NCBI RefSeq assembly: GCF_000315625.1
Contig: NW_005434536.1
Coordinates: forward strand, 1-64,000
Origin: Guillardia theta CCMP2712
Lineage: Eukaryota; Protista; Cryptophyta
Length of the DNA: 64,000 bases
Direction: 5' to 3'
Part shown: positions 1 through 57,525 of the stretch, one piece after another
Position numbering within the stretch: position 1 is the first letter of the stretch
Layout: each line of letters starts with the position of its first letter
Notes under the pieces: model-generated
What the model saw: only the letters and a program-made list of their open reading frames with translations
Told to the model about the DNA's origin: nothing
Databases searched by the model: none
Program-made: the position numbers and the translations under genes

Positions 1-3000
1 ACCCACCCGGCTGACAGGCTCACCTGACCGGTCACGTGACACATCACGTGACCGAGACAAGACTTTTTTATATCGCACATCCAAAAACCCATAGGACATT
101 TCTCCCAGGGGGAAGAAAACCTCCCTTGACCCCCCTGTTTCTCGACGGATCCTGCCGGCCGGGCCCGTCAGTAGACCGACTGCAGCCTTCAGCCCCGCCT
201 CAGACCCCCTGGAGGCCCGCCAGGAGGCTAAGTGTCCGGAGATTGGCCGGGGGCCTGATCTCTCCGGGCGGCCGTGACCGGTCAGCGGACCGTGTCAGCA
301 GGCCCGTGACATGTCAGCCGGCTGACAGGGGCCGTGACCCGGCTGACAGGCTCACCTGACCGGTCACGTGACACATCACGTGACCGAGACGACAAGACTT
401 TTTTATATCGCAGATCCAAAAACCCATAGGACATTTCTCCCAGGGGGAAGAAAACCTCCCTTGAACCCCCTGTTTCTCGACGGATCCTGCCGGCCGGGCC
501 CGTCAGTAGACCGACTGCAGCCTTCAGCCCCGCCTCAGACCCCCTGGAGGCCCGCCAGGAGGCTAAGTGTCCGGAGATTGGCCGGGGGCCTGATCTCTCC
601 GGGCGGCCGTGACCGGTCAGCGGACCGTGTCAGCAGGCCCGTGACATGTCAGCCGGCTGACAGGGGCCGTGACCCGGCTGACAGGCTCACCTGACCGGTC
701 ACGTGACACATCACGTGACCGAGACAAGACTTTTTTATATCGCAGATCCAAAAACCCATAGGACATTTCTCCCAGGGGGAAGAAAACCTCCCTTGACCCC
801 CCTGTTTCTCGACGGATCCTGCCGGCCGGGCCCGTCAGTAGACCGACTGCAGCCTTCAGCCCCGCCTCAGACCCCCTGGAGGCCCGCCAGGAGGCTAAGT
901 GTCCGGAGATTGGCCGGGGGCCTGATCTCTCCGGGCGGCCGTGACCGGTCAGCGGACCGTGTCAGCAGGCCCGTGACATGTCAGCCGGCTGACAGGGGCC
1001 GTGACCCGGCTGACAGGCTCACCTGACCGGTCACGTGACACATCACGTGACCGAGACAAGACTTTTTTATATCGCAGATCCAAAAACTCATAGGACATTT
1101 CTCCAGGGGAAGAAAACCTCCCTTGACCCCCCTGTTTCTCGACGGATCCTGCCGGCCGGGCCCGTCAGTAGACCGACTGCAGCCTTCAGCCCCGCCTCAG
1201 ACCCCCTGGAGGCCCGCCAGGAGGCTAAGTGTCCGGAGATTGGCCGGGGGCCTGATCTCTCCGGGCGGCCGTGACCGGTCAGCGGACCGTGTCAGCAGGC
1301 CCGTGACATGTCAGCCGGCTGACAGGGGCCGTGACCCGGCTGACAGGCTCACCTGACCGGTCACGTGACACATCACGTGACCGAGACAAGACTTTTTTAT
1401 ATCGCAGATCCAAAAACCCATAGGACATTTCTCCCAGGGGGAAGAAAACCTCCCTTGACCCCCCTGTTTCTCGACGGATCCTGCCGGCCGGGCCCGTCAG
1501 TAGACCGACTGCAGCCTTCAGCCCCGCCTCAGACCCCCTGGAGGCCCGCCAGGAGGCTAAGTGTCCGGAGATTGGCCGGGGGCCTGATCTCTCCGGGCGG
1601 CCGTGACCGGTCAGCGGACCGTGTCAGCAGGCCCGTGACATGTCAGCCGGCTGACAGGGCCGTGACCCGGCTGACAGGCTCACCTGACCGGTCACGTGAC
1701 ACATCACGTGACCGAGACAAGACTTTTTTATATCGCAGATCCAAAAACCCATAGGACATTTCTCCCAGGGGGAAGAAAACCTCCCTTGACCCCCCTGTTT
1801 CTCGACGGATCCTGCCGGCCGGGCCCGTCAGTAGAGCGACTGCAGCCTTCAGCCCCGCCTCAGACCCCCTGGAGGCCCGCCAGGAGGCTAAGTGTCCGGA
1901 GATTGGCCGGGGGCCTGATCTCTCCGGGCGGCCGTGACCGGTCAGCGGACCGTGTCAGCAGGCCCGTGACATGTCAGCCGGCTGACAGGGGCCGTGACCC
2001 GGCTGACAGGCTCACCTGACCGGTCACGTGACACATCACGTGACCGAGACAAGACTTTTTTATATCGCAGATCCAAAAACCCATAGGACATTTCTCCCAG
2101 GGGGAAGAAAACCTCCCTTGACCCCCCTGTTTCTCGACGGATCCTGCCGGCCGGGCCCGTCAGTAGAGCGACTGCAGCCTTCAGCCCCGCCTCAGACCCC
2201 CTGGAGGCCCGCCAGGAGGCTAAGTGTCCGGAGATTGGCCGGGGGCCTGATCTCTCCGGGCGGCCGTGACCGGTCAGCGGACCGTGTCAGCAGGCCCGTG
2301 ACATGTCAGCCGGCTGACAGGGGCCGTGACCCGGCTGACAGGCTCACCTGACCGGTCACGTGACACATCACGTGACCGAGACAAGACTTTTTTATATCGC
2401 AGATCCAAAAACCCATAGGACATTTCTCCCAGGGGGAAGAAAACCTCCCTTGACCCCCCTGTTTCTCGACGGATCCTGCCGGCCGGGCCCGTCAGTAGAC
2501 CGACTGCAGCCTTCAGCCCCGCCTCAGACCCCCTGGAGGCCCGCCAGGAGGCTAAGTGTCCGGAGATTGGCCGGGGGCCTGATCTCTCCGGGCGGCCGTG
2601 ACCGGTCAGCGGACCGTGTCAGCAGGCCCGTGACATGTCAGCCGGCTGACAGGGGCCGTGACCCGGCTGACAGGCTCACCTGACCGGTCACGTGACACAT
2701 CACGTGACCGAGACAAGACTTTTTTATATCGCAGATCCAAAAACCCATAGGACATTTCTCCCAGGGGGAAGAAAACCTCCCTTGACCCCCCTGTTTCTCG
2801 ACGGATCCTGCCGGCCGGGCCCGTCAGTAGACCGACTGCAGCCTTCAGCCCCGCCTCAGACCCCCTGGAGGCCCGCCAGGAGGCTAAGTGTCCGGAGATT
2901 GGCCGGTGGCCTGGGGCCTGATCTCTCCGGGCGGCCGTGACCGGTCAGCGGACCGTGTCAGCAGGCCCGTGACATGTCAGCCGGCTGACAGGGGCCGTGA

Positions 3001-5597
3001 CCCGGCTGACAGGCTCACCTGACCGGTCACGTGACACATCACGTGACCGAGACAAGACTTTTTTATATCGCAGATCCCAAAACCCATAGGACATTTCTCC
3101 CAGGGGGAAGAAAACCTCCCTTGACCCCCCTGTTTCTCGACGGATCCTGCCGGCCGGGCCCGTCAGTAGACCGACTGCAGCCTTCAGCCCCGCCTCAGAC
3201 CCCCTGGAGGCCCGCCAGGAGGCTAAGTGTCCGGAGATTGGCCGGGGGCCTGATCTCTCCGGGCGGCCGTGACCGGTCAGCGGACCGTGTCAGCAGGCCC
3301 GTGACATGTCAGCCGGCTGACAGGGGCCGTGACCCGGCTGGACAGGCTCACCTGACCGGGTCACGTGACACATCACGTGACCGAGACAAGACTTTTTTTA
3401 TATCGCAGATCCAAAAACCCATAGGACATTTTCTCCCAGGGGGAAAGAAAACCTCCCTTGAACCCCCCCTGTTTCTCGACGGGATCCTGCCGGCCGGGGC
3501 CCGTCAGTAGACCGACTTGCAGCCCTTCAGCCCCGCCTCAGACCCCCTGGAGGCCCGCCCAGGAGGCTAAGTGGTCCGGGAGATTGGCCCGGGGGCCTTG
3601 ATCTCTTCCTGGCGCCGTGATCCGGTCAGCCGGAACTGTTGTCATCAGGCCCGTGAACATGTCAGCCGGCTGACAGGGTCCGTGACCCGGCTGACCAGGN
3701 NNNNNNNNNNNNNNNNNNNNNNNNNNNNNNNNNNNNNNNNNNNNNNNNNNNNNNNNNNNNNNNNNNNNNNNNNNNNNNNNNNNNNNNNNNNNNNNNNNNN
3801 NNNNNNNNNNNNNNNNNNNNNNNNNNNNNNNNNNNNNNNNNNNNNNNNNNNNNNNNNNNNNNNNNNNNNNNNNNNNNNNNNNNNNNNNNNNNNNNNNNNN
3901 NNNNNNNNNNNNNNNNNNNNNNNNNNNNNNNNNNNNNNNNNNNNNNNNNNNNNNNNNNNNNNNNNNNNNNNNNNNNNNNNNNNNNNNNNNNNNNNNNNNN
4001 NNNNNNNNNNNNNNNNNNNNNNNNNNNNNNNNNNNNNNNNNNNNNNNNNNNNNNNNNNNNNNNNNNNNNNNNNNNNNNNNNNNNNNNNNNNNNNNNNNNN
4101 NNNNNNNNNNNNNNNNNNNNNNNNNNNNNNNNNNNNNNNNNNNNNNNNNNNNNNNNNNNNNNNNNNNNNNNNNNNNNNNNNNNNNNNNNNNNNNNNNNNN
4201 NNNNNNNNNNNNNNNNNNNNNNNNNNNNNNNNNNNNNNNNNNNNNNNNNNNNNNNNNNNNNNNNNNNNNNNNNNNNNNNNNNNNNNNNNNNNNNNNNNNN
4301 NNNNNNNNNNNNNNNNNNNNNNNNNNNNNNNNNNNNNNNNNNNNNNNNNNNNNNNNNNNNNNNNNCAGGCTCACCTGACCGGTCACGTGACATATCTAGT
4401 GACCGATACAAGACTTTATTATATCGCAGATCCAAAATCCCATATGACATTTCTCCCAGGGGCAGAAACCCTCTCTTGACCCCCCTGTTTCTCGACGGAT
4501 CCTGCCCGCCGGGCCCGTCAGTAGACCGACTGCAGCCTTCAAGCCCGCCTCAGACCCCCTGGAGGCCCGCCAGGAGGCTAAGTGTCCGGAGATTGGCCGG
4601 GGGCCTGATCTCTCCGGGCGGCCGTGACCGGTCAGCGGACCGTGTCAGCAGGCCCGTGACATGTCAGCCGGCTGACAGGGGCCGTGACCCGGCTGACAGG
4701 CTCACCTGACCGGTCACGTGACACATCACGTGACCGAGACAAGACTTTTTTATATCGCAGATCCAAAAACCCATAGGACATTTCTCCCAGGGGGAAGAAA
4801 ACCTCCCTTGACCCCCCTGTTTCTCGACGGATCCTGCCGGCCGGGCCCGTCAGTAGACCGACTGCAGCCTTCAGCCCCGCCTCAGACCCCCTGGAGGCCC
4901 GCCAGGAGGCTAAGTGTCCGGAGATTGGCCGGGGGCCTGATCTCTCCGGGCGGCCGTGACCGGTCAGCGGACCGTGTCAGCAGGCCCGTGACATGTCAGC
5001 CGGCTGACAGGGGCCGTGACCCGGCTGACAGGCTCACCTGACCGGTCACGTGACACATCACGTGACCGAGACAAGACTTTTTTATATCGCAGATCCAAAA
5101 ACCCATAGGACATTTCTCCCAGGGGGAAGAAAACCTCCCTTGACCCCCCTGTTTCTCGACGGATCCTGCCGGCCGGGCCCGTCAGTAGAGCGACTGCAGC
5201 CTTCAGCCCCGCCTCAGACCCCCTGGAGGCCCGCCAGGAGGCTAAGTGTCCGGAGATTGGCCGGGGGCCTGATCTCTCCGGGCGGCCGTGACCGGTCAGC
5301 GGACCGTGTCAGCAGGCCCGTGACATGTCAGCCGGCTGACAGGGGCCGTGACCCGGCTGACAGGCTCACCTGACCGGTCACGTGACACATCACGTGACCG
5401 AGACAAGACTTTTTTATATCGCAGATCCAAAAACCCATAGGACATTTCTCCCAGGGGGAAGAAAACCTCCCTTGACCCCCCTGTTTCTCGACGGATCCTG
5501 CCGGCCGGGCCCGTCAGTAGAGCGACTGCAGCCTTCAGCCCCGCCTCAGACCCCCTGGAGGCCCGCCAGGAGGCTAAGTGTCCGGAGATTGGCCGGG
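1..5597. repeat. Tandem array of a 332-bp GC-rich, palindrome-rich unit (~17 unit lengths including the gap; probably continues left of the window)
   Basis: The same unit recurs in register at 36, 368, 703, 1035, 1365, 1696, 2028, 2360, 2692, 3031, [gap], 4386, 4718, 5050 and 5382. Copies are near-identical with a few indels and one recurrent SNP (GTAGACC/GTAGAGC). The last partial unit ends at ...GAGATTGGCCGGG (5597). Confidence 0.99.
3700..4365. other. Assembly gap (666 N) inside the tandem array
   Basis: Run of N. The flanking repeat copies degrade toward the gap, as low-quality read ends do. Gap length is about two repeat units. Confidence 0.99.
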
Positions 5598-5672
5598 AAG
5601 GACCTGATGGATCTAGCGTACAAGATCCGGCACGGCTTCGTGCGTTTCCCTGCGGAGACTGCGACGTTGTGA
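5598..5672 (+). pseudogene. Probable 3' stub of a gene cut off by the tandem array (KDLMDLAYKIRHGFVRFPAETATL*)
   Basis: 24 codons with G/C-rich third positions like neighbouring genes. The TGA lies 2 nt from the stop of the convergent gene at 5675, matching the tight packing elsewhere. Confidence 0.4.
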
Positions 5673-5674
5673 GC

Positions 5675-5881
5675 TTAGTGGGTGTATGCCTTGGAAGCGA
5701 CGAGGAGGCCGATGTCCTCGGGGAGGAGGCGGGGGAGGTGGACGTTGCGGAGGGCCTTGGAGATCTGGATGGAGAGGAAGATGGCGAAGATCTGCAGGGA
5801 GAAGATGGCGAGGATGAAGCCGAGGAGGAAGCGCCTGGCTGCGGTCGTGTGTTTCCCGTTCCTGGATGACCCCGGGGCCAT
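5675..5881 (-). CDS. Small single-pass membrane protein (68 aa)
   Basis: MAPGSSR start; hydrophobic segment FLLGFILAIFSLQIFAIFLSIQI; GC3-rich codons. Confidence 0.6.
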   Translation of the reverse strand: MAPGSSRNGKHTTAARRFLLGFILAIFSLQIFAIFLSIQISKALRNVHLPRLLPEDIGLLVASKAYTH

Positions 5882-5994
5882 TTGTTTTGTTTTGTTTGTT
5901 TGTGCCATTGCCTGGATCGTAAATAAATGGATTGTGTGTAATGCTTCGTTCCATCCGTGTATTTGGGGAGTGCATGGGAGGGGGACGGTAAAGT

Positions 5995-6441
5995 ATGCAG
6001 CATATGCAGAGTAGGCTGGATACTGCGATGGAGTGCCCGTGGGGGTACAACCGCCTGATCCATGACTTCTTGGACCTGCTGCAGAGAGAGGACGAGCTCG
6101 CGATGCAGGGGCATTCCTTTGGCCCCCTCTCGGAAGAGCGCCTGACGTACGGGCCGGAGGGTCTGAGGATCGTCTCCCCCATGGTGTACAAGGGGGGGAA
6201 TGCGGCGGTCCAGCACGTCCAGTGCGTGAGGAGTGTGTTCCGGGTGTTCTGCCGCGTGTGCCACCGATGGATGCGGGGTCAGGACTGGACGTTCGTGGCG
6301 TGGCGGATGCTGGATAGCAACGACGCGAGGTTCGATCAGCGGTACCAACAGGACTACCTCCTGACGCTGTCGGAGCAGAGTCCGCGGGTGTACAAGAACC
6401 TGCTGATCTGCATCAGGAAGCCGCGGTCTTCCGTTCTTTAA
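5995..6441 (+). CDS. Hypothetical protein (148 aa; start may be 6028)
   Basis: GC3-rich ORF; stop lies 7 nt from the convergent gene; contains CxxCH. Confidence 0.65.
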   Translation: MQHMQSRLDTAMECPWGYNRLIHDFLDLLQREDELAMQGHSFGPLSEERLTYGPEGLRIVSPMVYKGGNAAVQHVQCVRSVFRVFCRVCHRWMRGQDWTFVAWRMLDSNDARFDQRYQQDYLLTLSEQSPRVYKNLLICIRKPRSSVL

Positions 6442-6448
6442 TGATCCT

Positions 6449-7360
6449 TTATTGGATGACCATTCCGTCATCCTCGTCCGACCCGACGACGATGAGCAGG
6501 TCGTCGAGGGTGTTGCCCGTCCTCGACCGGTAGAGGACAGAGCTCGTGCGCAGGTTATTGGAGAGGCTGTTGGCCTGCCGGCTCATGTCCTGGATGCGGG
6601 TCAGGTGCTCCTGTAAGGCGTCGAGCGCCTCGCCGTTGAGCTCCGCCCGCATGGACTCCGCGATGTTCATCACCGAGGTGCAGAGGGTGTTTATGAAGCT
6701 GGCGTTCTCGTGCACCCTGCGGGTCATCTGGATGTTCCTGTTGTTGAGCTCCTCGATCGTCTCGCGGAGGGCCTGCATGTCGATGCGGGTGTTCTGCCAC
6801 TCGTGATAGAAGTAGAGCATGTTGCTGGTGGTGAATTCCATGCCCGTCTCGCTCCGTATCCTGTCCCGCTCCTCTTGCATCCGCATCCGCTCCCTGTGCC
6901 GGTCGCAGGCGATGCGCAGGCGGTGCCGCATCCAGCCCGCGTGGTTCTTGCCCTTGTCGATGCGGTCGAGGAAGACGACGAGCCCGTTGTTGATGCCGCG
7001 CTCGATGACGTCGCAGCTGATCCCGTTGCGGCAGAAGGAGCAGAAGCGCTCGAGCTGGGCGGCCGTGATGTTGTGCCTTGTGGGGATGTGGACAAGCATC
7101 TCCCAGCGGTGTGGCACTACCTCGGAGGACCAGTACCACTCGGCCATGAAGCATGCTTGCAGGAGGCGGAAGACTGAGACGCGGAAATGGATGTCACCGA
7201 AGCCGTAGAACGCCGCCCTCTGCACCGCGTCGCTGTGCTCGTTTTTCGGGGCGACGATGTAGTTGCTCATCTCGATGAGGAAGTCGGTGAAGGCGGGCAG
7301 CGACGCCGGGTCGATGATGCTGTGGATCAGGACGTGGTCGTACTTCCCTGAGAGGGACAT
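6449..7360 (-). CDS. Hypothetical protein with C-terminal coiled coil (303 aa)
   Basis: Long ORF with heptad-like C-terminal half; AATAAA overlaps the stop (TTTATT 6448-6453 on +). Confidence 0.8.
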   Translation of the reverse strand: MSLSGKYDHVLIHSIIDPASLPAFTDFLIEMSNYIVAPKNEHSDAVQRAAFYGFGDIHFRVSVFRLLQACFMAEWYWSSEVVPHRWEMLVHIPTRHNITAAQLERFCSFCRNGISCDVIERGINNGLVVFLDRIDKGKNHAGWMRHRLRIACDRHRERMRMQEERDRIRSETGMEFTTSNMLYFYHEWQNTRIDMQALRETIEELNNRNIQMTRRVHENASFINTLCTSVMNIAESMRAELNGEALDALQEHLTRIQDMSRQANSLSNNLRTSSVLYRSRTGNTLDDLLIVVGSDEDDGMVIQ

Positions 7361-7422
7361 CGATGTTGTTTTGCCGTGCGTGGTGCGGGGGTGTGCTAAG
7401 TGATGGATGGATCCCTTTTTTT

Positions 7423-7689
7423 TTATTCATTCAAGGAGAAGTCCGAGTCGGATAGGGAGGAGGATTCGGCGTCGGATTCTACCGGCGAGTGGATCGGCGT
7501 GAAGGTCTTCCTTTTCTTCACTGGGGTATTTGGCACCTGCAGATCAACCTTGGTCGGCAGCGGGGACAGGATCCCGTCGAAGTCGTCCTCATCCTCGCTG
7601 CATTCTGCCTTTCTTGCAAGCTTGACGAATATGGTGTCCTCGTTGAGCGACTTGATGAGCCAGGGGGCGAGCTGCGGCGTGGTGGCCAT
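7423..7689 (-). CDS. Small acidic Ser-rich protein with NLS-like motif (88 aa)
   Basis: MATTPQ start; PVKKRK; several SP/TP sites; AATAAA overlaps the stop (7422-7427). Confidence 0.6.
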   Translation of the reverse strand: MATTPQLAPWLIKSLNEDTIFVKLARKAECSEDEDDFDGILSPLPTKVDLQVPNTPVKKRKTFTPIHSPVESDAESSSLSDSDFSLNE

Positions 7690-7820
7690 GCGTGGTAGGT
7701 GGTGCGTGGGAATGGCCAGTGGCGGCCCTGTTTTTAAAAAAGGGTCCGGAGGGGGATTTGAATTCTTTTTTTTAAAAAAAAAACGGTCGCGGGGCTCAAC
7801 GGCAAGCGTAGGGGCAAGCA

Positions 7821-8543
7821 ATGCCGGGCCGGCCTCAGATGAGTGTGTCGGATTTTGTATCAGAGCTGCGCGGCATCGTGTGTGCGACGAAGGATGTGGC
7901 GGTGGAGGAGGAGATTTGTGAGTCTACCTCATGCTTCAGCACATATGAGAACTTCAAGGATTACTGCTGCAACAAGGCCTTTGAGGTCATCGGGGACGAC
8001 AACCAGTACAAGCGGTACTTCTCTCAATGCAAGGAGAACGCCGATGTCTGGGCGATCAAGGTTCACGCGGGGGTGCAGCAGGTGATGGGAGACATCAAGT
8101 CTGTGCAGGCCATGGTGGAGACGCTGCAGACACAGGGGAAGGAGAAGCTGTACCGTCTCTGCCTGGAGGTGATGACGAGCTCCGCACCCCCCGTACGACG
8201 GAAGAATGGGTGGTTCATCTGCAGCATCTCGGGAGCCAGGTCGGACATGTGCGTGGAGGTGGGAAGGCAGGGGAAGGATTCATTCTCGATTGTGGTTCAC
8301 CAGAAGTTCTCCCCCTTTATCCTCTATCTGTGGTTCTGCTGCAAGATCGAGCACATCGTCAAGAACCAGGTGCGGGTATGGGTCGGGAGACAGGACACCG
8401 ACGAAGTCGACCAGCTTTGCAGGCTCTTCCAGGATGACGACGCCCTCGTGCAGAGGTGGTACAGCATCTTCCGCTGCTCCGTAGCCCATGTAAAGCTGTC
8501 TATATTGAAGGAGTCTAGGAGCCACTCCGTAGGTATTTCATAG
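7821..8543 (+). CDS. Hypothetical Cys-rich protein (240 aa; start may be 7839)
   Basis: Long ORF with coding-like composition; stop lies 1 nt from the convergent gene. Confidence 0.8.
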   Translation: MPGRPQMSVSDFVSELRGIVCATKDVAVEEEICESTSCFSTYENFKDYCCNKAFEVIGDDNQYKRYFSQCKENADVWAIKVHAGVQQVMGDIKSVQAMVETLQTQGKEKLYRLCLEVMTSSAPPVRRKNGWFICSISGARSDMCVEVGRQGKDSFSIVVHQKFSPFILYLWFCCKIEHIVKNQVRVWVGRQDTDEVDQLCRLFQDDDALVQRWYSIFRCSVAHVKLSILKESRSHSVGIS

Positions 8544-17976: not shown

Positions 17977-18654
17977 ATGTGGCCCATCGCCTACGATACC
18001 ATCCTTAATCTCTTCATATCCCGCGAGCGGGAGGAGCGAGAGGAGAGGAGGAGGAGGCAGGAGGAGGAGGCGCGCCAGACCCGTCTCATCTCACCCCTCC
18101 AGCTGCGTATGCAGGCAGTCAGGGGGGTGGAGCAGAGGAGGGAGGAGGGCATAAGGGACATGGATGGCTTCAAGCGAATGCAGATGTGCCGCGACGCGCT
18201 TTCGGCGATCGACCAGAGGGGTTGGAACCGCTCTTACCATCAGCGGGAGTTTCACAACGATTTCCTCCGAGCCTGTGCCCGTGTGTTCTGGAAGACAGAC
18301 CCGCACGGCCAGTTCAGCCGTGATCACCAGAGGATCTTGGAGCTCAACGGATGGGACCACCTCGCGCAGGAGATCCTTGTCAGCACGCCCCGTCGATTCG
18401 GCAAGACCATTTCCGTGAGCATGTTTGCGGCGGCGATGATGTTCTCGGCCCCTGGGGTGGAGGTGTCGATATACTCGACCTGTAAGCGCATCTCGCAAAA
18501 ACTCCTCCGCAACATACAGAAGTTCCTTTACATCATATACGAGCAGATGGGGGTACAGGCTTACAAGGTGATCCGTATGAACATGGAAGAGGTCGTTGTC
18601 CAGGGTCCTGAAAGCAGGCAGGATGTCAGGATTGTCAACTCCTATCCTTCCAAG
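17977..18654 (+). CDS. DNA-packaging terminase ATPase subunit, N-terminal part (putative exon 1, 226 aa)
   Basis: Q-motif RSYHQ; Walker A LVSTPRRFGKT (STPRRFGKT at 18382-18408; compare herpesvirus VPRRHGKT); motif IYSTCKRIS; ends IVNSYPSK at AAG|GTGATA. Walker B and the nuclease domain are missing. Confidence 0.85.
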
Positions 18655-18739
18655 GTGATACCCGCATGCCGCGCTTGTCTTGTACTTGTTACTGACCCAC
18701 CCGGAGCGGACGCGATCCGGTGTTGACTGACACTGGCAG
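18655..18739 (+). other. Predicted spliceosomal intron (85 nt), or the 5' part of a much longer intron
   Basis: Donor AAG|GTGATA; two ACTGAC branch-like motifs (18691, 18726); acceptor ...CACTGGCAG. Confidence 0.55.
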
Positions 18740-22685: not shown

Positions 22686-24233
22686 ATGGACGGTGGGGCT
22701 TACAAGCGCATGCGCATGTCGCAGGATGCGATGATGAGGAAGGAGAAGTTCAGGAGGCACGATGAGGAGGAGAGCTTCTGGCAGCTGATGGAGATGGCAA
22801 GCTACGAACCCGTCATCAATGTTTCCTTTTCGACGATACAGGCGATGTGCCTTTCAAGAGACATAGACGTTGTCGTCGATAAGAAGCCCAGCATCCCTGG
22901 ATTCAAGAAATTTTTGAATATGTATTACAAGCCCTTCCTTGCCCACTGCATCCGGAGCTTCTTCGTGTGCGGCTTCGCGGCCGTCCGCTTCCGCAGGCTC
23001 GCCAGCGGGGACATCGTGCCCGAGTGCCTCCCGCTCGGCAGCTTCCGCTGGACAGTTGTCGCCAACCCGATGAGGAGGGACGGACAGGGAAACGAAGGCT
23101 CCGGCGCAGACAACATCAAGCCCGACGCACAGGAGCCCGCGAGCAGGAAGACCTACCTCCCCAAGTTCACGCCCAGGGAGAGCGACGAGAGCAAGATGCT
23201 CCGCTACAAGATCACGGTGCTTACCGGCAATGTCAAGGAGAACGAGGTCTACGTCTACGAGTTCGTGCAGCCGACCTTCAACGTGTCGGGCAACTCCCGC
23301 TTCTACGCAACGGTCAGCAGCCCGATGGCGGGCCTGATCCATGAGTACCGGGACCTGCGCGAGGCGAGGGCGAGGCGCTCGATGGCCGACGCCTGGAACA
23401 CCAGGGCCCACGTCGTCTGCTCGCTCAAGGACAGCAAGATACCGACGGACCAGCCCAGGGAGAACTTCCTGGCCACCCAACTGACGCTACCCGCCGTCCG
23501 GGCCGAGCACAACCTCTTCCTGGCCAGCCTCGCCGAGGAGGAGGGTATGCAGGCAAGGAAGGTCACCGAGCAGATCGAGGAGGAGTTCCTGGAGAATTCA
23601 GGCAACCATCCCCCGCTCCTGCACATTCTCCCGAAGAACTACGACAGCCAGATGCTCGGCCAGTTGAACCCGGTCGAGGACATATCCCTTCTCTACAACC
23701 AGTGGACGAACTCAGTCTTCCAACTGTTCAAGATCCCGCCCAAGATGATGATCGGGAACCTGGGGCTCACCAAGGAGGCCGGCATGAACCAGCGGATATT
23801 CTCGGCCGAGATGCAGCAGCTCTGCATGCATCTGCGAGCCTTGGCCGGGAATGTCTACTCCATCATCTACGGGGAGGAAGACCCACACAGGGTCAACTTC
23901 GTCATCCAGCCCGCCCCTAAGATCGACGTCGAGAGCATCGAGGACCTCAAGATGCTCTTCGAGATCGGCTCGATCAAACCATCCACCGCTGCTAAACTGT
24001 CGGATACGCTCATCAACGCGGATAAGGACATCCTTGCGAGTGTGAACGGGAATATGGGTGGTATGGTCGGCGTCCCGGGAGAGATGGGGGCGATGAAGGA
24101 TCGGAATGAGTCTAAGGAGGACAGGGATGCCGGGAAGGTTACAAGGACCGAGCTCCAGTACCAGGCCCCGAAGAAGGCCACCCCCGCCAAGTTCGCGCCA
24201 CCGCCCAAGGAGCCAGTGAGTAAGAAGAAATAA
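22686..24233 (+). CDS. Portal protein, HK97-type fold (515 aa)
   Basis: Collinear portal-like pattern: EPVINVSFSTI; FLAHCIRSFFVCGFAAV..RR...GDIVPECLP; ILPKNYD; VFQLFKIPPKMM; IFSAEMQQL; LFEIGSIKPS. ATATAA at 22651 and AATAAA over the stop. Recognised by eye only. Confidence 0.7.
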   Translation: MDGGAYKRMRMSQDAMMRKEKFRRHDEEESFWQLMEMASYEPVINVSFSTIQAMCLSRDIDVVVDKKPSIPGFKKFLNMYYKPFLAHCIRSFFVCGFAAVRFRRLASGDIVPECLPLGSFRWTVVANPMRRDGQGNEGSGADNIKPDAQEPASRKTYLPKFTPRESDESKMLRYKITVLTGNVKENEVYVYEFVQPTFNVSGNSRFYATVSSPMAGLIHEYRDLREARARRSMADAWNTRAHVVCSLKDSKIPTDQPRENFLATQLTLPAVRAEHNLFLASLAEEEGMQARKVTEQIEEEFLENSGNHPPLLHILPKNYDSQMLGQLNPVEDISLLYNQWTNSVFQLFKIPPKMMIGNLGLTKEAGMNQRIFSAEMQQLCMHLRALAGNVYSIIYGEEDPHRVNFVIQPAPKIDVESIEDLKMLFEIGSIKPSTAAKLSDTLINADKDILASVNGNMGGMVGVPGEMGAMKDRNESKEDRDAGKVTRTELQYQAPKKATPAKFAPPPKEPVSKKK

Positions 24234-24250: not shown

Positions 24251-27200
24251 TCACGGCATCCTCACGACCGCGGCCTGCCCGGCGGGGATTGCGATGTGGA
24301 TGAAGGAGGTGACCCTCCGGTTGGCAGTGAGCCAGTCTGAGAAGGTCGGGGGCCAGTGGTAGGCGGTTCGCATCCAGAAGTAGGAATAACTAGCAAGATC
24401 TGCCTCCCCACACCTTGCCTCCGCGTAGCGAGACGCGATGGAGGTATACAGAAGCAGATTATCGGAGAGCCAGGTTGTTGCCTGGGAGGTGCAGGCCGAG
24501 GGGGAGTCCGGGAGGCGGAGCAGGTCGACCAGACCAATCGTGCTCGTCTGGGTGACGCAGTACATGGGGTAGTCTCTGAAGCAGGCCTTCTGGAATGTAT
24601 CTGAGAGGACGAGGTGGCTGGTACCTTGGGTGAGGAAGACCCTACTCTGGTCCATCAGCCCGCGGATCAGGCCCGGGAGGAGATCGCCGATGGCGTGGAT
24701 GAGGACGATTTCAATCCTTGTCACCCCAGGGACCCCTATCCTGACCGACAGCAGAGAGTCCTGTATCGACTCGGACAAGGAGGGGAATTCAATGCCTGAT
24801 GTGTAAGGTATCCAGGAGCTGTTCAGCCCGAAGCGGAAGGCGGCGGGTAGCTTCCTTTCGTCCACCGAGACGAGGCTCGCCGTGCAGGTTTCCAGGAATT
24901 TCTCTGTAAGGGCCACCCCTGTGAAGGCATAGCCACCTTTCCTGGAAGCCAGCAGGAGGGTGATCCTTGCTGTGTCGAAGTCATGGTAGAGGTGGGGTGT
25001 TTGAAGGACGACGTACATGGGCCAGCCCGGGCGCCAGGTGAAGAGCGTCTCGCAGTGCGTCCCGGCCGTGTTCTGGTCGATGACGACTGCGCCGTGGAGT
25101 GCTGGGCTCGCGGACCAGCACGAAGGGAGTGGAGCCAGGCTTGCGCAGATCCTCTGCTCGTCGATGACATCCCACCCCTTCCAGCCACCGTAGCGGAGGA
25201 TGTAGGTCATGGCCTGGGCCCTTACCAGGAGCTCCTCGTCTCCCTCGAAGACGAAGCGGGCGGCGTATAGGTTCGAGCCTGCGAACCGGTACAGTGAAAG
25301 AGAGAGGTAGGAAACCATCCCCGGCTGCACCTTCTGGATCACCGACATCGAGGCCGACACGCCCCGGCTGTAGCTCACCCTGTGGTAGACCGTGTGGTAC
25401 GTCGTAGATAGTGTAGAGTCTACCTGGATGAACATGGCCGCGATATAGAAGCTGCAGTTCAGCCACCCCTGACCCCAGGGCGTGCAGTTCACGACGGGCT
25501 CCAGCGCGGCGGCGTCGATGGAGAAGCGGTAGAGCCCGCCGTAGGCCGGGGTGAGGTCCATGAAGCCGTACGTGTCCTGCCCGTAGGGGATGTACCTTTC
25601 GTAAAATGCCTTCTCTAGCCGCTCACAATCGCAGGTCCCATTGGGGCAGGCCTGGTACGTGACGGAGAGGGAGGCGGGGAGGAGTTCTTCAGAAGTATCA
25701 CTCTGGATCTCGGAAAGGCAGCACGCCTTGCATTCGACCTCTGGTATGCTCTTAGAAAGATACAGAACAGGGATTGATGTCCCAGAGGTATGTTTGAGCA
25801 GTATACTCCCGGTGATGGCATCATGAAACCCATCACCTGAAACATTTGTGATGATCAGATCGTCAGTGACGGGGGAGAGGAGCTTGGATTCCGGCTGACA
25901 TGCGTCGTAGTCCTCGTCGAGGATGTAGCCCGGGTCGCAGCGGGCCAGGCAGGAGTAGTCGGTGACGAGGTAGTGCTTGGCGATGCTGTCGCTGAGAGGG
26001 CAGGACTGGCAGGGTTGGTCTCCCAGTCCCTTCTTGAAGGAGAGCGTGCCGCAGGGGACGCAGGTCTTCGTAACATTGGCCTTGGAAGCAAGACCGTAAT
26101 CTGGGATACACTTACACATATCACTCGAGTTGGAGGCACTGCTTGCTGTTGTAGTGTAGAGGCCGACGGCTGTGCACGGGCTGCAGAACGAGGAAGCGGG
26201 AAATTCGGAGAAGTAGCCCACCCAACACGAGACGCATACCTCCGCGTTGCTCAGGGAGGGTTTGTAGCTTCCAGGACTGCAAGGACTGCATGTGTCCTCC
26301 CCGATCCTCTCATATCCTGACTCACAGATGCAACCCTCGATGTTCGCGGTGCTAGAGAGGGACAGGGAGTGATTCGGGCAGGGCAGGCAGCTGGTGGAAT
26401 CCACCGCCCCGTACTCGGGCTGGTACGTGTTGAAATCGCAGGAGGAGCAAGGGAGGTTGCTGACGCCGGGTTTGTAATGCCCAGGGTAGCAGGTCCGGCA
26501 GCCCTTCAGAGGTACCAGCGGGTCGATCGGAGTGTTACCCGGGAGGCAGCGGCAGCTCCCTGTGCTCTGGCTTCCCGTAAAGAGCGTCGTCATACCGGAG
26601 GGGCAGGGGACACAGCCTGAAATAATCTCGATTGAGTTCGATGCGTAGTAGCCTTCTTTGCAGGGGGGGCAGGATGCCTGCCCCTGGCCGATGCCGGAGG
26701 TGCCGAGCGGGCAGTATTCGCAGTACAGCGAAGCATTCTCGGGAGTGTAAGACCCCCTCTCGCAGGGACGGCAGGCATCGTTCAGCGTGCTATCCTTGTA
26801 TTTACCAGGTGGGCAGGCCGTGCAGGTCATGTGGTAGCCCCCCGACGCTACTGGCTGCAGTCTGTACTCGTACCCTGGGACGCACCGGCAGTCATACTGG
26901 AACTCCGCCGCGGTCTTGTACGTGATGGAGTTGGCCGGGCAAGCGAGGCACTGGTCGGCTCGGGTGGCGGCTGTGATGGGCTGGTAGGTATCGAAGTCGC
27001 AGGGGATGCACGCGGAGGACCCGTTGGTGTCTTCGTAGAAGCCCGCGGGGCAGGGCTCGCACTTGTGTAGCGCAGGAGAGTCTCCAAAGTAGCCCGGGGG
27101 ACAGGGCTCGCAGAAGAGCATGCCGGGACCCCGGTAGTGCCCTATCAGGCAGGCCACGCACTGGTAGACCCCCGCAACCAGCTGGATCTCGTATCCGTCC

Positions 27201-30200
27201 TCACATACGCAGTCGAAGACGCTGCCTGACACCGCCGGGCTCGTCGAGTTTAGAGGGCAGTCGCGGCAGACGAGACGGAAGTCGTTGGAGTACGTGTTGT
27301 TGTCACAACCGATGCAGACCCGCAGGTCGAAATCGAGGCGGTAGCCGGGCTGGCACCTGACGCAGGCGGTGTACCCGGCCTCGGAGTAGAAGCCCTCCTC
27401 GCAGTCCTTGCAGTGGGTGGCGTTGGCGTCTGCGTAGGTCTGTGGTACGCACTGGAGACAGGAGCTGAAGCCGGGGAGGGAGACCGAGCCCGGGTCGCAG
27501 GGAATGCAGTCACTCGATGCTTCAAGGGAGTAAGTTCCACCCGTGCAGATGAGGCAGGAGGAGGTTCCGGGGGAGGGGGCATGGTAGCCCGCCGAGCAGT
27601 TCTGGCAGGTGAGGGAGGTGTTGGAGCCGTTGGCCTCGGATGCCTTTCCGATCGGGCAGAGGGAGCAGGAGCTCTGTCCAGGTGACTGCTGGAAGCTCCC
27701 CGGGAAGCATGCAAGGCAAGAGGGATTGGCGAGTTCGGGACCGTATGTCCCTGGAAGGCAAGCGATACACTGGAACTGGTCTAACATCTTTATCATCCCG
27801 AAACCGCACTGGATGCATCCCCTGTGTAGTGCATCTTTGAAGAAGCCATCAGGGCAGGGGATGCACGGCCCGCCATCGGGTCCGAAATACCAGCTTTCAC
27901 ATATGCAGTCCGTATTCTTGACGGAAGCTTGCTGGGAGATGGTGTTGTTGGTGCAGGGGAGGCAGTCCGAAGGTTGGGAGGACTGGTTCAGCGGGTTGTA
28001 AGTGTTGACAGGGCACGCCTCGCACACACGGTTGGAAATGGTGTCCTTGTAGTATCCTTTTTGACACACCGTGCACTTCCCTTCCACATATCCAAAGCCT
28101 TCCAAACACTGACAGCCCAGCTCCGACCCGGTTCCCTCCCCGGAGATGCTGTTATCACGGCAGGTCTGGCAGAGGTCTTCTGAGATGGCAGCGGGGATGA
28201 TGCTATAGGTGTTGTTCGGGCAGGGTGTGCATTCAGTGGAGCCGTAGGTTGTCTTGTAGTAACCAATGGGGCAGGCACTACAGTTCCCAAATGCCCCCGT
28301 GTAGCCCGGGTCACAGAGGCATGCCGCAAGGGTGGCCTTCATCGAATTGAAACTCGTGCTATGCGGGGGGCATTCCAGGCAGGATCCTATCGAATCCGCC
28401 GCGAGGGTGTCGGAGTAGCGGCCGTCCGGGCAGATCTCACACGGCAGGTCGCCCTGCGCGTCTTTGTAGGTTCCGACGGGACAGGGGGAGCAGGCCTGCC
28501 CATCCCTGCCGAAGTGACCATGGGTGCAGCGGCATCCTGTGATGTTACCTGTATGATTATCACTGGTGGTATTATCGGGACACTTCTGACAGTCACTCTC
28601 TGCCACGGTTGTCGCCTTCTCCGAGTACGTTCCCGCTGGGCAGGCGTCACAGACACTCTGGTTGTAGTCCACGGAGTAGTAACCGGGCCCGCACTCCCGG
28701 CAGACGAAAGTGATGCCACCGTCCATGGTGTAGTAACCCGGGACGCAGCTGCAGTTTGATACAGACGAGGAGCCATTGCTGGAGACTGCATTGGAAGGGC
28801 ACTTAATGCATTGATCGATGCTGGAGGCTCCGAGCAAATCCAGGAATGTATCCTCCGGGCACTTCAGACAGCGGTCGGTGCTGGTAGAGACGGACTTGTA
28901 AGTCCCAGGTTTGCAGGCATGGCAATCGCCGGAGCTGTACTCATATCCGGGGTCACAAAGGCACTCTGAACGGTAGACCGAACCCGGGAGAGAAGTGGAG
29001 TTGGGTTGGCACGCCTTGCACACTGTAAGACCCCGCTCATCCGCGTAGGTATCATTAGAGCAGATCGCGCAGGATCCGTTGCCAAATGTTGTCTTGCTGT
29101 AGCCCTTGTCGCACTGCGTGCACTGCAGGCTTCCATCTTGAATCACACCAAAGAACCCCGGGTTGCAAAGGCAAGATGCAATATCGATCGCCAGCCTTGT
29201 GCTGTTCCCTACACAGGCAACGCAGTTGGAGCGGCTCGAAGACGGAGACACAGTGGAGTACTGGTTGTCCCCACATGCAGTGCAGCTGAAATGATTGAAG
29301 GACTCTGTGTAGAACCCCGGTGGGCAGGGCTCGCAGGTATCGTTTCGACGGGAGTAACCTGGCACGCAGAGGCACTGCGCGAGGAGGGAAGTGCCCGATG
29401 GAGACCGGGTGTTGGCGGGACACGCGCGGCACTCACTCGAGTTGATGATCCCCGTTTTAGGAAGGTAGGTGTTTTCCGGACAAGGTGAGCAGGGGACGGT
29501 CTCCCTGGCATCCTTCCAGTATCCCGCAGGGCAGGGCTGGCAGTCGCTGTTGTTGTAGGATCCATAGCCGCGTTCGCATAGGCAATCATCTAGCGATTTC
29601 GATTGCACGTGAGAGTAGGTGTTGGCGGGGCATTCACTTGGGGTAATTGTATTGCGGTCGGGGCAGTATGTGAGCTCGGGGCACGGGACGCAATCCCCGG
29701 ACATGTCGATGCGGTAACCAGCCGGGCAGAAGCATTCCGTCACATATACCGCATTGCCATCCGACTGAAAACGATTGGGGCAGAGGGTGCAGTTGCCCCC
29801 ACCCGTCCCGTAATGGTTTCTAGGGCAAGAAATGCAGGTATACTTCAAGGCCTCTGGATCGGAGTAGTAACCCTGGTCGCAAGTGCATGAGCTCGAACCT
29901 GGTGGACTCGAGCTGTGCTTTGTGCAGTTCTCTATAACCCCATTGGTACAAAACGCATTGGCAGGGCACAGGAGGCACTCGGTGGTGAAGACGTTGAGTG
30001 AGTAGTACCCTTCAAAGCACGTGCAAAAGAAGTTACTTTGCGAGTTGGGAGGAGAGGTGGAGAATTCCGGGCACTTGACTTGTATCTCGTTGAAGCAGTA
30101 GGAGCCGGCGGGGCAGTCGATGCAGATGGCGCACTCGCAGTAGAGGCCGTTGCCGCGGAAGTTCTCGTTGCACTCGCAGGTGAAGCTCCCTGGGGTGTTG

Positions 30201-33200
30201 GTGCAGGTGGCGTCCCTGCTGCAGCCGGCGGTGCCGAGCTCGCACTCGTCGATGTCGAGGCAGGAGCTGTTGGACGCGTCGAGGGTGAAACCGGGCTCGC
30301 ACTCGCAGCGGTAGGCTCCATCGAGGTCGATGCAGACAGAGTTTTCGAAGCAAGGGTCTCCCGCGCACTCATCGAGGTTGACGCAGAGGCCCGTGCTGGG
30401 GTCTTCGCCGTAGCCTTCAATGCAGCTGCACCCGAAGCTTCCAACCGTGTCGGTGCAGACGGAGCTGATCGGGCAGGGCGCTACTGCCGCGGCGCATTCG
30501 TTAAGGTTTACGCAGGCAGCTTCGGATAGGCTGTAGTAGTAGCCTTCTTTGCAAAAGCACATGAATGAACCCTGGGTGTTTTCGCAGAAGCTCACGTTCT
30601 TGTCGCAAGTGTCGGTCCCCTGCCTGCACTCGTCGACATCCTGGCACTGCCCGATGATGGGGTACCAGCCCGAGAGGCAGGTGCAGGTGTAAGACCCGAA
30701 AGTGTTGGTGCAGAAGGAATTGAGCGGACAGGGGCTTGCTAGAGTCGTGCACTCATCCATGTCTGTGCATTCCACTCCATTGGTAGAAGCTTCGAATCCC
30801 GTGATACATTCACAGGACTCTAGGGAGGCTGAAGCAATGGTTGGAGTGGAAGTGTACATGGGGCAAGCCGTGCAGGCGCCATTGCCGGTGGTGTCCTTGT
30901 AGAAGCTGACATTGCAGTGAGAGCAAGTGTCCCCCACCCTCGCATAGCCGACGTCGCAGAGGCAATCGGAGATGGCTACCGATCCCGCCAAGGAGAAGGA
31001 GTGGTCGGGGCAGACAAGGCATAAATCCGAGCGGTTAGCACCTAGGGAGGGCTGGAAGGTGTCTTTCGGGCAGATCTGGCAGGGGAGCATGGAGGTAATA
31101 GCCTTGAAAGATCCCATGGGGCACTCCTGGCAGTAGCTGGAAGACCCTGGCTCGAAGCCGGGCTTGCAGACGCAGGTGTCTTCGCTTGTGCTCCCTGCCG
31201 GACTGACGCTCCCGGCGGGGCACTCCTGGCAGTCGTCCATGGTGGTGGAAGCCAGGTATGGCTGGTATGTGTTGGGTGGGCAGAGGTCGCAGAGAGAGGG
31301 GCCGGGGAGGGTCTTGTACGACCCAGACGGGCAGGCCGCACACTCTCCGCCGTCCGCCCCGGTGTAGCCCGGCTGGCAGCGGCAGGTCCCGAGGGTGTCT
31401 TTCAGGCCTGACGACTGGGAGTTGTCAGGGCAGGGGGTGCAGGCCTCGTTGCCGATGGTCTCCTTGTAGGACTTGGAATCGCAGGGAGAGCAGTCCTCGT
31501 TCGCGTCCCTGGTCCTCCCCGCAATGCAGACACAGCTGGAAGCGCTGGCTTGTCCCTCCTGGTTCGTGGAGAAATCGGGACATAGCGTGCAGGCCCCCGA
31601 TCCGACTTGAGGCTTGAATTTCCCCGCCTCGCATGCCGTGCAATCGTACCCGCCCGGCCCAGTGTAGCCCGGCTCGCACTCGCATGCGGTGGGAGAGGTA
31701 GCGGCGGGCCGGTTCGAGCGCGAGTGCAGCGGGCAGAGCGGGCAGGTCGAGTAGGCGGCGACCTCGCACAGCCTCAGTCCGGAGTTCAGAGAGGGGGCGC
31801 TGACGGTGAAGAAGGTACCCACCAGCGAGCACGCGAATGTGATCGGTGCCCCACCCGCGAGAGAGACGTAGCTCCCGCAGAAGGGGCTGACAGTGAAGTC
31901 GGTGAAGTTGCCCACGTTGACGTCGATTCCAGTCAAGGAGCAGTCGGTGCAGCTCTGGAGTGTGACGAGGGAGAGCAACTGCGGGCTCTGGAACGAGACC
32001 TGCAGCCAGGGGATCATTTCCGTCCCGGTCTCGGCACAGGTGGCCGTGCTTCCGTCCATGGCGTTGCCTGCTGCATTCACCGTAGTGGAAAGTGCTGCAG
32101 ATGCCCATGATTGATTCAGGAGGTTCATAAGGCTGAATTCCCCGTGGTTGGGTTTGTAGCTGTTGGTAGGGCAAGGGGAGCAGGGCCCGCCGTCCGGGCC
32201 GGTGTACCCAGGGAGGCACTTGCAGGCTTCAGCCCCCACCCCCGCCTGGGTGAGGCTGGTGGAGTTTTCGGGGCAAGGCAGGCAGCTCCCGCCATCCTCG
32301 TACTCCCCGGCACGGCAGGCCACGCAGGTGGGGACGCCGTCGACCCGGGTGGATTCATTGAAACCCCTGTTGCAGGCACAATCCAGGGGGGAGTCCGACT
32401 GTTGGGGGGAGAAGGAGTCTGCTGGGCAGGACAGGCAAGCGCTGAACCCAGACCCGTTGGAGTACCTCCCCGCATCGCACTGCGCGCAAGGCCCGCCTCC
32501 CGGCCCGTAGAACCCGGCTTTGCAGAGGCAGAGGGACTGGGCGGCGCTCCCGGGCTGGCTGTCGGAGTCGTCTGGGCACGGCAGGCAAGCGTAGTCGCCA
32601 GTCAGGGATTTGTACTTCCCGGAAGGGCACGCCTCGCACTCCACCCCGTTCTGCCCGTAGTACCCAGGCATGCACGCGCAAGAGGAGAGTAACGGGGAGG
32701 CAGAGGGGCTGGTGGAGTTGGCAGGGCAGCGCTTGCAGGACACCTGCCCGTCGTCGTTGTAGAAGCCGGCCCGGCAGGCCGTGCATCCCACAATGCCGCT
32801 GCCCTCGTAGCCCGGGTTGCAGCGGCACTGCGTGACGTCGGCCGCTCCCTGGGGGCTGGTGGAGTCGTCCGGGCACGGCGTACAGGCCTGGTCCCCCGTG
32901 GAGTCCTTGTACTTGCCCGCATCGCACGCCACGCAGAGCCCGAGGAGGCTGGTGTAGCCGCGGTCGCAGACGCACATGTCAACGTTCGTAGAGGCAGGAG
33001 CAGAAATCGTCCGCTCAGGGCACCGGCTGCAGGGGTTCTGGCTTATGCTGGCCTTGTAGGTGTAGGGAGGGCAGGCCTTGCACACACCGTTGACATCCGG
33101 GCTGTAGCCGGGTTTGCAGCGGCAGGAGTTGGGAGTGGCGCTACCCGCGGTTAGGGTGGTCATGTTTTCTGGGCACTTACTGCAGATCTGGCCGGTGCCG

Positions 33201-39200: not shown

Positions 39201-41466
39201 ATGGTTCCATTACTGTAGTCTTCTGCATGGTATATAGCCCATGGCCGTTTGTTTTTTAAAAGATTGTTAAAATTCTTGTAGGTCTGTACGCTGTAGTAAG
39301 AATTCCATGGATTATAAGTATATTCCCCTAATGCACACGGTGTGCAGACAGAAGCATCCGAGGTGATTTCACCGGTGAACCCGGCCTTGCAGTAGCAGTC
39401 AGTCACGGAGGTGCTTCCTAACAGGCTGGTAGCGTTTCCAGGGCAGCTGTAGCACGATGGATACAACCCAAGTAGCTGTGCACGATACGTTCCTGCAGGG
39501 CAGGTGATACACTTGAAGTTGTTGCAACCTTCACACTCGAATTGGTACTTGATCACCTGGTTGGAAGCGCAGCTGTCACATTCCGGCCTGTAGGTTACAC
39601 AGTTTTCACACGGAGCTGATCCAATGGTTATCTTGAAGGTGCCGGTAGGGCACACTGTGCAAGCCTGGCTCCCGTCCACCCCCGTGTACCCCACATTGCA
39701 CACACACCCCAGTGAGGAACTAGTACCCCGGTTCCGCGTGGTACTCTCTCCCGTGCAGGCCACACAGTCACTCCCGGTGGTAGACCCGGTCGAAGTCAGG
39801 TACTTCCCAAAATCGCAGGCTGTGCAGACGGCGTCGTTGGAAATGGTATCTTTGTAATGACCCGCTGGGCAAGACATGCACACGCCCTCCTGCGGCGCGT
39901 AGAAACCAGGCTGGCAGAGGCAGTCCCGTAATTTGGACGCACCCGTTATTACAGTCTGCGAGTGGGACCCGCACTGAATGCATGATGTCTGCATGCTCTT
40001 ATCCTGGTAGGTATTTGCAGGACAGACGGCGCAAGATTTTCCTACTATTCGTGTACCCGGCACGCAGAAGGTGTAGCAGTCTTCGTTTGAAGTCGACCCC
40101 GTGTTATCTGTGCTCTTTCCGCTCTCACAGGTGGTGCACGCCGTCTGCGCGGGCGAGCTGGCGTAGGATCCTACAGGGCAGTCCTGGCATGTGAGGGAGG
40201 AGGTGCCGAACTGGCCTGCAGGGCAGGGGTAACAGCTGTCTCCAATGGGATAGTACCCTTGATTGCAGACACATATGTATGACATTCCCGACGCTTGCAG
40301 CAAGCTGTTCTCTTGGCAAGGGATACATTGTGATGAAGAGGTCGACCCTATTGCTCGGGTATAGGATTGAGAGGGGCACGGTGTGCATTTCGATTCGTGG
40401 CTTAGGGAGGTCTTGTAGGTCGCAGCAGGACAGGCAATACATGTGTCTTTAAGTTCGATAACCCCCACCGAAAAGTATGTGTTCCGGTAATACCCGGGGA
40501 TGCACATGCATGATTGTTGCGAAGTACTCCCCGTATCGGAGGTTGACTTGTAAGAATCACATTTGGTGCACTTCTGGTTGGACATTTCACCTTTGTACCA
40601 CCCCACTGGCAGGCCGTACAGCTGCCACTCACCAGCTCATACCCAGCCACGCACATGCAAGAAGACACACCCAGTCGGCTCCCCGACACTGTTCCCGTGT
40701 TGTCCGGGCAGTTCGTGCAAGTTCCCGATGAAAATTTGGAACACCCGCTGAGGTACTGTTTATCACTGCAAGAATCTGCATAAGTGCTACAGCTTATGCA
40801 TGTCCCCGCGGTGCCACCCCCACAGCCCACCAACACGTGGTCCGCGGGACAATTCACCGAGGCGCAGCTCTTGCAGGGGGACTGGATCGAGTCGGTGCAC
40901 TGCTCGTAGTAGAAACCCGAGGAGCAGGAGCACGGAAGGCATGTTCCACTTGAAAGGCCACCACAGCCACTCTTGTAAAATCCAGAAGGGCAGTCATTGC
41001 AACTCAAACAGCCTACATACTGCCGCGTAAAGTACTTGTTGATTACGTGCACCATACTATTGAACCATTGAAAGGCACCGCAGCTCGGGGTGAAGCACTG
41101 GGTGTCTCTTGTACCCGTGCAACTGTCTAGGACCGCAAGCTGGCCCCCGCCGCATCCGCTGCATAATCGGCAAAAACTCAAACTCTGGTAGTTTGGTTCG
41201 TAGGTGTATCCACGGTTGCATGCACACCCCACCCGGATGACGCTCTTGTACTTGGGAGAGCACCAGATTATAAAACAACTCTCTCCATCCGGAACACTTG
41301 TATATCCCCATTCATAGATGTATGCATTGTATGCACAGATAGCAATGGAATTAGCCTTGATCAAGTCCACCCAGTCCTTTTCAAAAATTCGAAAAAAATC
41401 GGATCCATGGACTATGCATACACAACAGAAAAAAAAAACATAGAGCGCACACACCCTGCTCTTCAT
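24251..41466 (-). CDS. Giant secreted Cys-rich repeat protein (~5,738 aa once one frameshift near 40601-40604 is repaired)
   Basis: ORF 40402..41466 carries the signal peptide and ORF 24251..40606 continues it. Many ephrin-receptor-like/GCC2-GCC3 repeats (CxxCPxGxY...CxCxxG). LamG-like domains at ~38580-39270 and ~35450-35990, an F5/8-fucolectin-like domain at ~31750-32130, five Ca-binding EGF repeats at ~30140-30770, and a unique C-terminal ~530 aa. Confidence 0.85.
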
Positions 41467-41544
41467 CCCCTTTCACAGCCGCGGCGAGTGGGTTTCAGGC
41501 TTATATGCAGGCGGGTAGCTCGGGGCTATTTTATTTAATTCCAA

Positions 41545-53131: not shown

Positions 53132-53196
53132 TATACCTCTCTACTCTTCCCAGATTTATTCTCTTAAATGCACCCACCAATAACTATGACGCCATA

Positions 53197-56580: not shown

Positions 56581-56678
56581 TTTCCTCACCTAGAATCACC
56601 TACATGTCTTAAATGTCCTGCATGGCACCCCTGGATGCAAAAAAGAAGAGCATTTATTGTCAATATATTTTGTAAAAT

Positions 56679-57467: not shown

Positions 57468-57525
57468 CACTCTCCTACACTCACAAGGGCTATGCAACCA
57501 GGCGTATATACCACTTTCTTTTTGT

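Follow-up and report, generated by a model that had tools for sequence, protein, structure and literature searches.

A 332-bp palindrome-rich tandem array apparently joined inside a mirusvirus-like gene of Guillardia theta: candidate host repeat DNA at an integration junction

The stretch of DNA analysed here, referred to as the window, comprises the first 64,000 nucleotides of contig NW_005434536.1 of the cryptophyte Guillardia theta CCMP2712 (assembly GCF_000315625.1, forward strand). It opens with a tandem array of a 332-bp unit at 1–5597 and continues with a region, 5598–64000, that is very likely mirusvirus DNA. An earlier note, made from the letters of the window alone, had taken the array primarily for a terminal repeat, replication origin or episome-tethering element of the neighbouring virus, with a host repeat used as the integration site as its fallback. 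The features of the array and of its join to the viral region are listed below (unstranded unless a strand is given).

1..3699: left block of the array, 332-bp tandem, about 11 copies; the final copy is error-rich and resembles a read end
3700..4365: assembly gap of 666 N within the array
4366..5597: right block of the array, 3.7 copies; the final copy ends after unit position 237, within a G5 run
64..73: T6ATAT, a short A/T element adjoining the TGAC cluster, TATA-like on the minus strand; in every unit
275..386: TGAC/GTCA cluster of 12 half-sites in about 110 bp, across the unit boundary; it holds nested palindromes and TCACGTGA twice, and is present in every unit
5597..5598: array–virus junction, with imperfect microhomology
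5598..5672, plus strand: 3′ 24 codons and stop of a viral gene of about 96 aa that the array cuts; matched by two sibling proteins
5598..8162: segment D, 2,565 bp, also encoded on a 243,622-bp scaffold, as judged at the protein level only

Tandem Repeats Finder returned a period of 332 with 98% matches, in 11.0 copies at 5–3695 and 3.7 copies at 4366–5597. The array thus holds at least 14.7 tandem copies, a minimum because of the gap at 3700–4365, which the earlier note, correct about the 332-bp repeat, had not mentioned. The copies that flank the gap are rich in errors of the kind seen at read ends. Elsewhere the units are nearly uniform: of the 13 units that are complete, 8 have at most two differences from the reference, and a single variable site carries G in 4 of 15 copies. 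The GC content of the array is 63.5%. The array is real and non-random, and its junction with the viral DNA looks real as well.

The new fact at this locus is that junction, which falls at base 5597/5598 inside a viral gene. The last unit before it, which breaks off at 5597 within the G5 run, agrees with the reference at 237 of 237 bases, and the two complete units preceding it carry 0–1 differences. GGG stands before the break, and CCTGAT comes after it at a distance of 2 nt in the unit and of 5 nt in the unique DNA. When 40 residues spanning the join were used as a query, two proteins were matched among 31 candidates, and both are G. theta gene models. GUITHDRAFT_120169, a 96-aa protein encoded on a 100,616-bp scaffold, agrees with the post-junction frame at 23 of 24 residues, and GUITHDRAFT_145950, on the 243,622-bp scaffold, at 23 of 23; in both cases the match begins exactly at 5598. 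The N-termini of the two proteins are identical to each other at 55 of 76 positions and bear no likeness to the array, and the genes beside them are homologues of the next genes in the window. The gene of about 96 aa belongs to no known family. Matches that start at 5598, together with a non-array N-terminus in both siblings, show that the array cuts a viral gene, of which it has replaced the first three quarters, while the two sibling copies have no array at that place. A repeat that cuts a viral gene in this way is not a native terminal repeat at this place, and the first preference of the earlier note, a native terminal repeat or origin here, is weakened accordingly by an array that ends inside a gene left uncut in two siblings.

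A junction of this kind might also have been made by the assembler, which we consider very improbable. The assembly is a draft with a gap and read-end errors within the array, and segment D, being present on two scaffolds, can mislead an assembler. Against a chimera stand the clean units just before the join and the microhomology at it; moreover, a swap at segment D would alter the virus arm after D and yet still require the join between array and D.

The reading that we favour, with a probability of roughly 0.5, is that the array is host repeat DNA of a subtelomeric, ribosomal DNA (rDNA)-spacer or satellite type, lying at an integration junction with the broken end of a mirusvirus-like genome. 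We prefer it because of the broken gene, the uncut siblings, the lack of the array motifs in viral intergenic DNA, the microhomology at the break, and the precedent of the host repeats named LORE-TEARS. In the available text of the preprint that describes them, an integrated mirusvirus of Aurantiochytrium is flanked by host repeats of 366–529 bp in 1.8–22.6 copies, and the episome is without them (10.1101/2023.06.15.545109). Host repeats of this type are homogeneous, a few hundred bp long and present in up to about 20 copies, and the array has units of 332 bp in at least 14.7 copies at 98%. The fallback of the earlier note has therefore become the best fit, given the cut gene and its uncut siblings, although it is not thereby proven.

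We infer a host origin for the unit, end joining at the break, and a role for the TGAC/E-box cluster as a binding platform for host proteins. A linear virus DNA, with its end at a non-specific point within the gene, would have become attached where a host tandem array was broken, and a few matching bases would have helped the join, probably through microhomology-assisted end joining. The array would have been kept homogeneous thereafter, and its palindrome cluster would bind host factors.

Several points weigh against this reading. The window begins inside the array, so that no host DNA is found on the far side within it; the telomeric hexamer is absent from 1–5597; and scans of the array found no RNA genes. 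The sibling scaffolds were seen solely through their annotated proteins. The iteron-like unit, and the occurrence of its double-E-box motif in initiator genes, would suit a viral origin equally well, and a viral repeat shifted by a deletion would produce an identical junction.

Among the functions considered for the unit, a tandem array of small-RNA genes was set aside after Rfam returned six weak matches, all far under the gathering score. A transfer RNA array was likewise rejected, with no ARAGORN hits and neither an A box nor a B box of RNA polymerase III. A bacterial promoter or terminator in the array was not supported. Sites resembling yeast CDEI occur four times per unit over both strands and were set aside, as no long A/T element follows them.

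All motifs that the earlier note had quoted are present: an 11-bp inverted repeat at 29–54, TGACCGGTCA at 25–34 and 275–284, TGACATGTCA at 307–316, and a 16-bp palindrome at 312–327. To judge their frequency, one unit was compared with 2000 dinucleotide shuffles. The unit has 14 TGAC/GTCA half-sites against a shuffle mean of 2.8, a count reached in none of the 2000; corrected over all 4-mers, the excess was reached in 1 of 2000. Twelve half-sites fall within 120 bp (2.15 in shuffles, 0/2000), in agreement with the dozen previously noted, and there are five palindromes of at least 10 bp (0.34 in shuffles, 0/2000). An inverted repeat with an 11-bp arm arises in 3 of 2000 shuffles. The cluster folds with a z of −6.8, and none of 200 shuffles folded equally well. 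The TGAC palindrome cluster is thus far beyond chance. E-box and TGAC cores are typical sites of bHLH, bZIP or TALE-homeodomain proteins.

This anatomy raises the possibility, which we hold only tentatively, that the array is an iterated origin, terminal repeat or tethering element of the virus itself, displaced to its position beside the gene when a genome, integrated or episomal, underwent a deletion or was rearranged. The TGAC palindromes would then be bound by a protein, of the virus or the host, that opens the adjacent A/T tract. Iterated inverted repeats beside an A/T tract are also the layout of the lambda origin in the available text of PMC6022878, although the tract there is 39 bp long and here 10 bp. 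The double-E-box motif TCACGTGA-N4-TCACGTGA is present in at least 121 viral stretches, and of 31 open reading frames (ORFs) that overlie it, 25 are initiator, replisome-organizer or DnaD-like genes and four others encode zinc-finger proteins; these ORFs were picked for motif density or length rather than at random, and some are redundant. The origin-like anatomy that the earlier note had seen is in this respect borne out, since the motif recurs in replication-initiator genes of phages. White spot syndrome virus (WSSV), in the part of PMC2855118 that treats them, has homologous regions with palindromic units of 250–300 bp that are proposed origins, and the KSHV genome (Kaposi's sarcoma-associated herpesvirus) has 21–41 terminal repeats in the accessible part of PMC13595911.

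Other observations oppose a displaced viral element. The array cuts a gene that is kept uncut in two sibling copies. A second copy of the unit is absent from the other 58 kb of the window (best blastn match 16 bp, E 0.66), and bases 5598–64000 contain no TCACGTGA, no TGACCGGTCA and no TGACATGTCA, with at most 5 half-sites per 120 bp. The viral matches share the motif only, over 24–83 bp, and not the unit. No frame of the array matched Pfam at E 0.01 (two frames) or a PHROG better than E 0.3 (four frames). A terminal repeat of herpesvirus type, as the earlier note had envisaged, fares no better: besides the missing second copy of unit and palindromes, both strands of the array lack CGCGGCG, which beside a T tract makes up the pac2 motif, and any canonical G-quadruplex pattern. 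A pac1-like T5 between G3 and G2 on the minus strand is too short to mean much.

The double-E-box motif was also followed beyond this locus. Clusters of it lie within genes for phage replication initiators that belong to several PHROG families (at loci L026, L060, L084, L118, L121 and others), and it appears as an iteron-like word common to distant phages. The palindrome cluster also stands just before a C2H2 finger in zinc-finger genes of viral contigs, two of which are GVMAG contigs (L002:662-2056, L013:986-2329, L057:986-2329 and L063:665-2038). By analogy with phage initiators, such a zinc-finger protein may bind its own gene.

Exact unit motifs were found neither in viral contigs (26 nt) nor in metagenome contigs or prokaryote genomes (22 nt each), a 17-nt unit motif had three viral matches, and in blastn the unit matched none of 50,697 phage records. 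These searches bear on a further explanation, in which the array belongs to a third element that underwent recombination with the virus, for instance a replicon of plasmid-like or satellite type or the amplified end of a transposon. The very high homogeneity and origin-like anatomy of the units would agree with such a source, and G. theta hosts other integrated elements according to the available text of PMC12220804. On the other hand, the window contains none of the genes or terminal structures of such an element, and the viral, metagenome, prokaryote and phage collections yielded no match. We regard this explanation as improbable.

The DNA directly after the junction has a second copy in the assembly. 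Three gene models on the 243,622-bp scaffold match 5598–8162 at 100% (23/23 plus 56/56; a 390-aa protein on both scaffolds; 114/114), and the copy of the 240-aa gene there ends after residue 114. The 100,616-bp scaffold carries a diverged syntenic copy, with 76–97% protein identity over five models. Beyond 8162, none of the three clusters with G. theta members holds one from the 243,622-bp scaffold, and most other ORFs there lacked a collection entry (9 of 10 in one set). At the protein level, the two copies of segment D are cut at opposite ends on the two scaffolds, which is expected after the integration of a terminally redundant linear genome. More weakly, we infer from these protein matches that D could be what makes a captured molecule terminally redundant, with the opposite end of that molecule on the 243,622-bp scaffold. 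For comparison, headful packaging in T4 adds about 3 kb, as given in the available part of PMC13595911.

An extension of this idea, which we think somewhat unlikely, is that a mirusvirus genome was captured whole and recently, and that the window holds one of its ends, in the order array, D and virus here and virus, D and flank on the 243,622-bp scaffold. D would then be a headful, circularly permuted terminal redundancy, and the linear virion form would have integrated into one site of the palindrome-rich array, possibly an origin or tether. The same appearance would result from two haplotypes, from an assembly swap at D or from a segmental duplication that took place later. That the array also follows D on the other scaffold is no more than a lead: the cut gene model there ends in Pro-stop, an ending that would arise at 12 of 664 array positions, compared with 0.58% of random DNA. 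One of these positions is only 2 nt away from the left break; among same-strand positions, however, 19% are within 3 nt of one.

The viral region itself is about 95% covered by ORFs, and its main features are as follows.

5675..5881, minus strand: membrane ORF of 68 aa, convergent with the cut gene, with stops 2 bp apart
6449..7360, minus strand: ORF of 303 aa, related to sequences from Hanusia phi and from environmental contigs
7821..8543, plus strand: ORF of 240 aa, complete here and cut on the 243,622-bp scaffold
17977..18726, plus strand: terminase-type ATPase domain, Walker A TPRRFGKT, in an ORF without a nuclease domain
22686..24233, plus strand: predicted portal protein of 515 aa with a Duplodnaviria fold, from a structure model
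24251..63975, minus strand: giant cysteine-rich surface-type ORFs of up to 5,444 aa, in one block

Proteins of the window have identical counterparts among the G. theta gene models of a 176,329-bp scaffold and also have relatives in Hanusia phi and environmental contigs, in keeping with the unicellular eukaryote hosts of Mirusviricota. The structure model of the 515-aa ORF at 22686 has a predicted local distance difference test (pLDDT) score of 55 and a predicted template modelling score of 0.47. Foldseek returned 105 matches at E ≤ 0.001 with this model, and the named top rows are mostly portals; each of the 50 rows listed by VIA-align is an entry for a portal or a neck (best Z 14.9, root-mean-square deviation 6.1, 257 aligned). 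The model thus assigns the ORF to the portal fold that marks Duplodnaviria, and the herpes-like virus region that the earlier note had placed beside the array is upheld by a predicted portal next door. For the ATPase ORF at 17977, Atlas matches of 0.94–0.97 include clusters with TerL/Terminase_6N in 13–29%, while Pfam, PHROG and Protein Data Bank searches gave no terminase match and the single-sequence model (pLDDT 47) was too poor for use. The likeness of this ORF (17977–18726) to its relatives fades shortly past the GT after the SYPSK codons, and no nuclease domain is nearby; such an ending would fit a split or trans-spliced mirusvirus terminase. An HK97-type major capsid protein was not identified in the window, and G. 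theta is listed as a carrier of the mirusvirus major capsid protein, clade E03, in the available text of PMC10827195. Because of the portal fold, the terminase-type ATPase and this listing, the region 5598–64000 is very likely mirusviral. No loci related to the ATPase or the portal were found in viral contigs, and the single related metagenome contig, 2.3 kb long and without the unit, is too short to extend to the position of the array.

Some further observations concern the viral region alone. About 40 kb of it (24251–63975) is occupied by same-strand giant cysteine-rich ORFs of 5,444, 2,149, 1,759, 1,127, 1,098 and 993 aa; those scanned show ephrin-receptor-like, NHL and F5/8 domains, and several seem to continue across stops or introns. 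Two neighbouring ORFs at 12651–14542 are fused in one G. theta model, whose sibling model is named a fungal-lipase-type protein. A second match to the tail of a 182-aa gene (16045–15503), now diverged, lies near 10.7 kb (10680–10830), and GGTCTCGCCTGCACCCTCTCCA recurs in two intergenic stretches, 10604–10785 and 12475–12650; both repetitions point to a local duplication around a 562-aa cysteine-rich ORF. Two T-run/A-run palindromes between divergent genes at 7731–7785 are a possible viral promoter or terminator motif. Coding tandem repeats occur at 11284–12210 (a 165/111/54-bp mosaic) and 17123–17487 (39-bp unit, 9.4 copies).

The locus bears on the route by which mirusviruses get into host chromosomes and on the nature of their genome ends and origins, and its junction, exact to the base and located in a cultured model alga, can be tested directly. 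Should the array be host DNA, mirusviruses would have landed in repeat arrays in two unrelated protists; if it is viral, it would be the first candidate cis-element for the phylum; and if it is a mere satellite beside a decaying viral fragment, the locus is ordinary. The duplicated 2.56-kb segment D is the lead most worth testing, because as a terminal redundancy it would reveal the packaging mode and provide the first evidence of how a mirusvirus genome is cut and packaged. A literature search that took in neither figures nor bioRxiv supplements nor subscription papers, the G. theta genome paper among them, brought up nothing on this array or on the origins and genome ends of mirusviruses; the word 'repeat' is absent from the main text, as available, of PMC10827195 and PMC12768974.

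Among known systems, the terminal repeats of gammaherpesviruses (for KSHV, 803 bp in 21–41 copies, from the same portion of PMC13595911) resemble the array as a GC-rich, head-to-tail array that abuts the unique genome of a Duplodnaviria member. Unlike them, the G. theta array joins inside a gene, is missing at the same place in the siblings and does not bound an intact unique region in all copies. The iteron origins in phage initiator genes of the lambda O type (PHROGs 2447, 4880 and 345) likewise have an iterated double-E-box motif beside an A/T tract, but the array shares the motif only, is not located in an initiator gene, has a short A/T tract and has been amplified as a 332-bp satellite. 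The homologous regions of WSSV, a large nuclear double-stranded DNA virus, have palindrome-bearing units of similar size; in the available text of PMC2855118 they occur as 3–8 units at nine intergenic sites, whereas here one block of at least 15 copies has an intragenic join, and no dispersed intergenic blocks of the kind seen in WSSV and baculoviruses were found within 5598–64000. With respect to mirusvirus clade E03 of cryptophyte assemblies, for which the accessible part of PMC10827195 lists G. theta by its capsid protein, the window adds portal and terminase-type genes. The LORE-TEARS of AurliV-2 (LE-Chr15) in Aurantiochytrium limacinum differ in that their units are longer than 332 bp, the host lineage is another one, no rDNA or telomere was seen here, and the G. 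theta join cuts a viral gene. The likeness to the repeats described in 10.1101/2023.06.15.545109 lies in the architecture: repeat units a few hundred bp long, arranged in tandem and numbering up to about 20, that directly bound an integrated mirusvirus.

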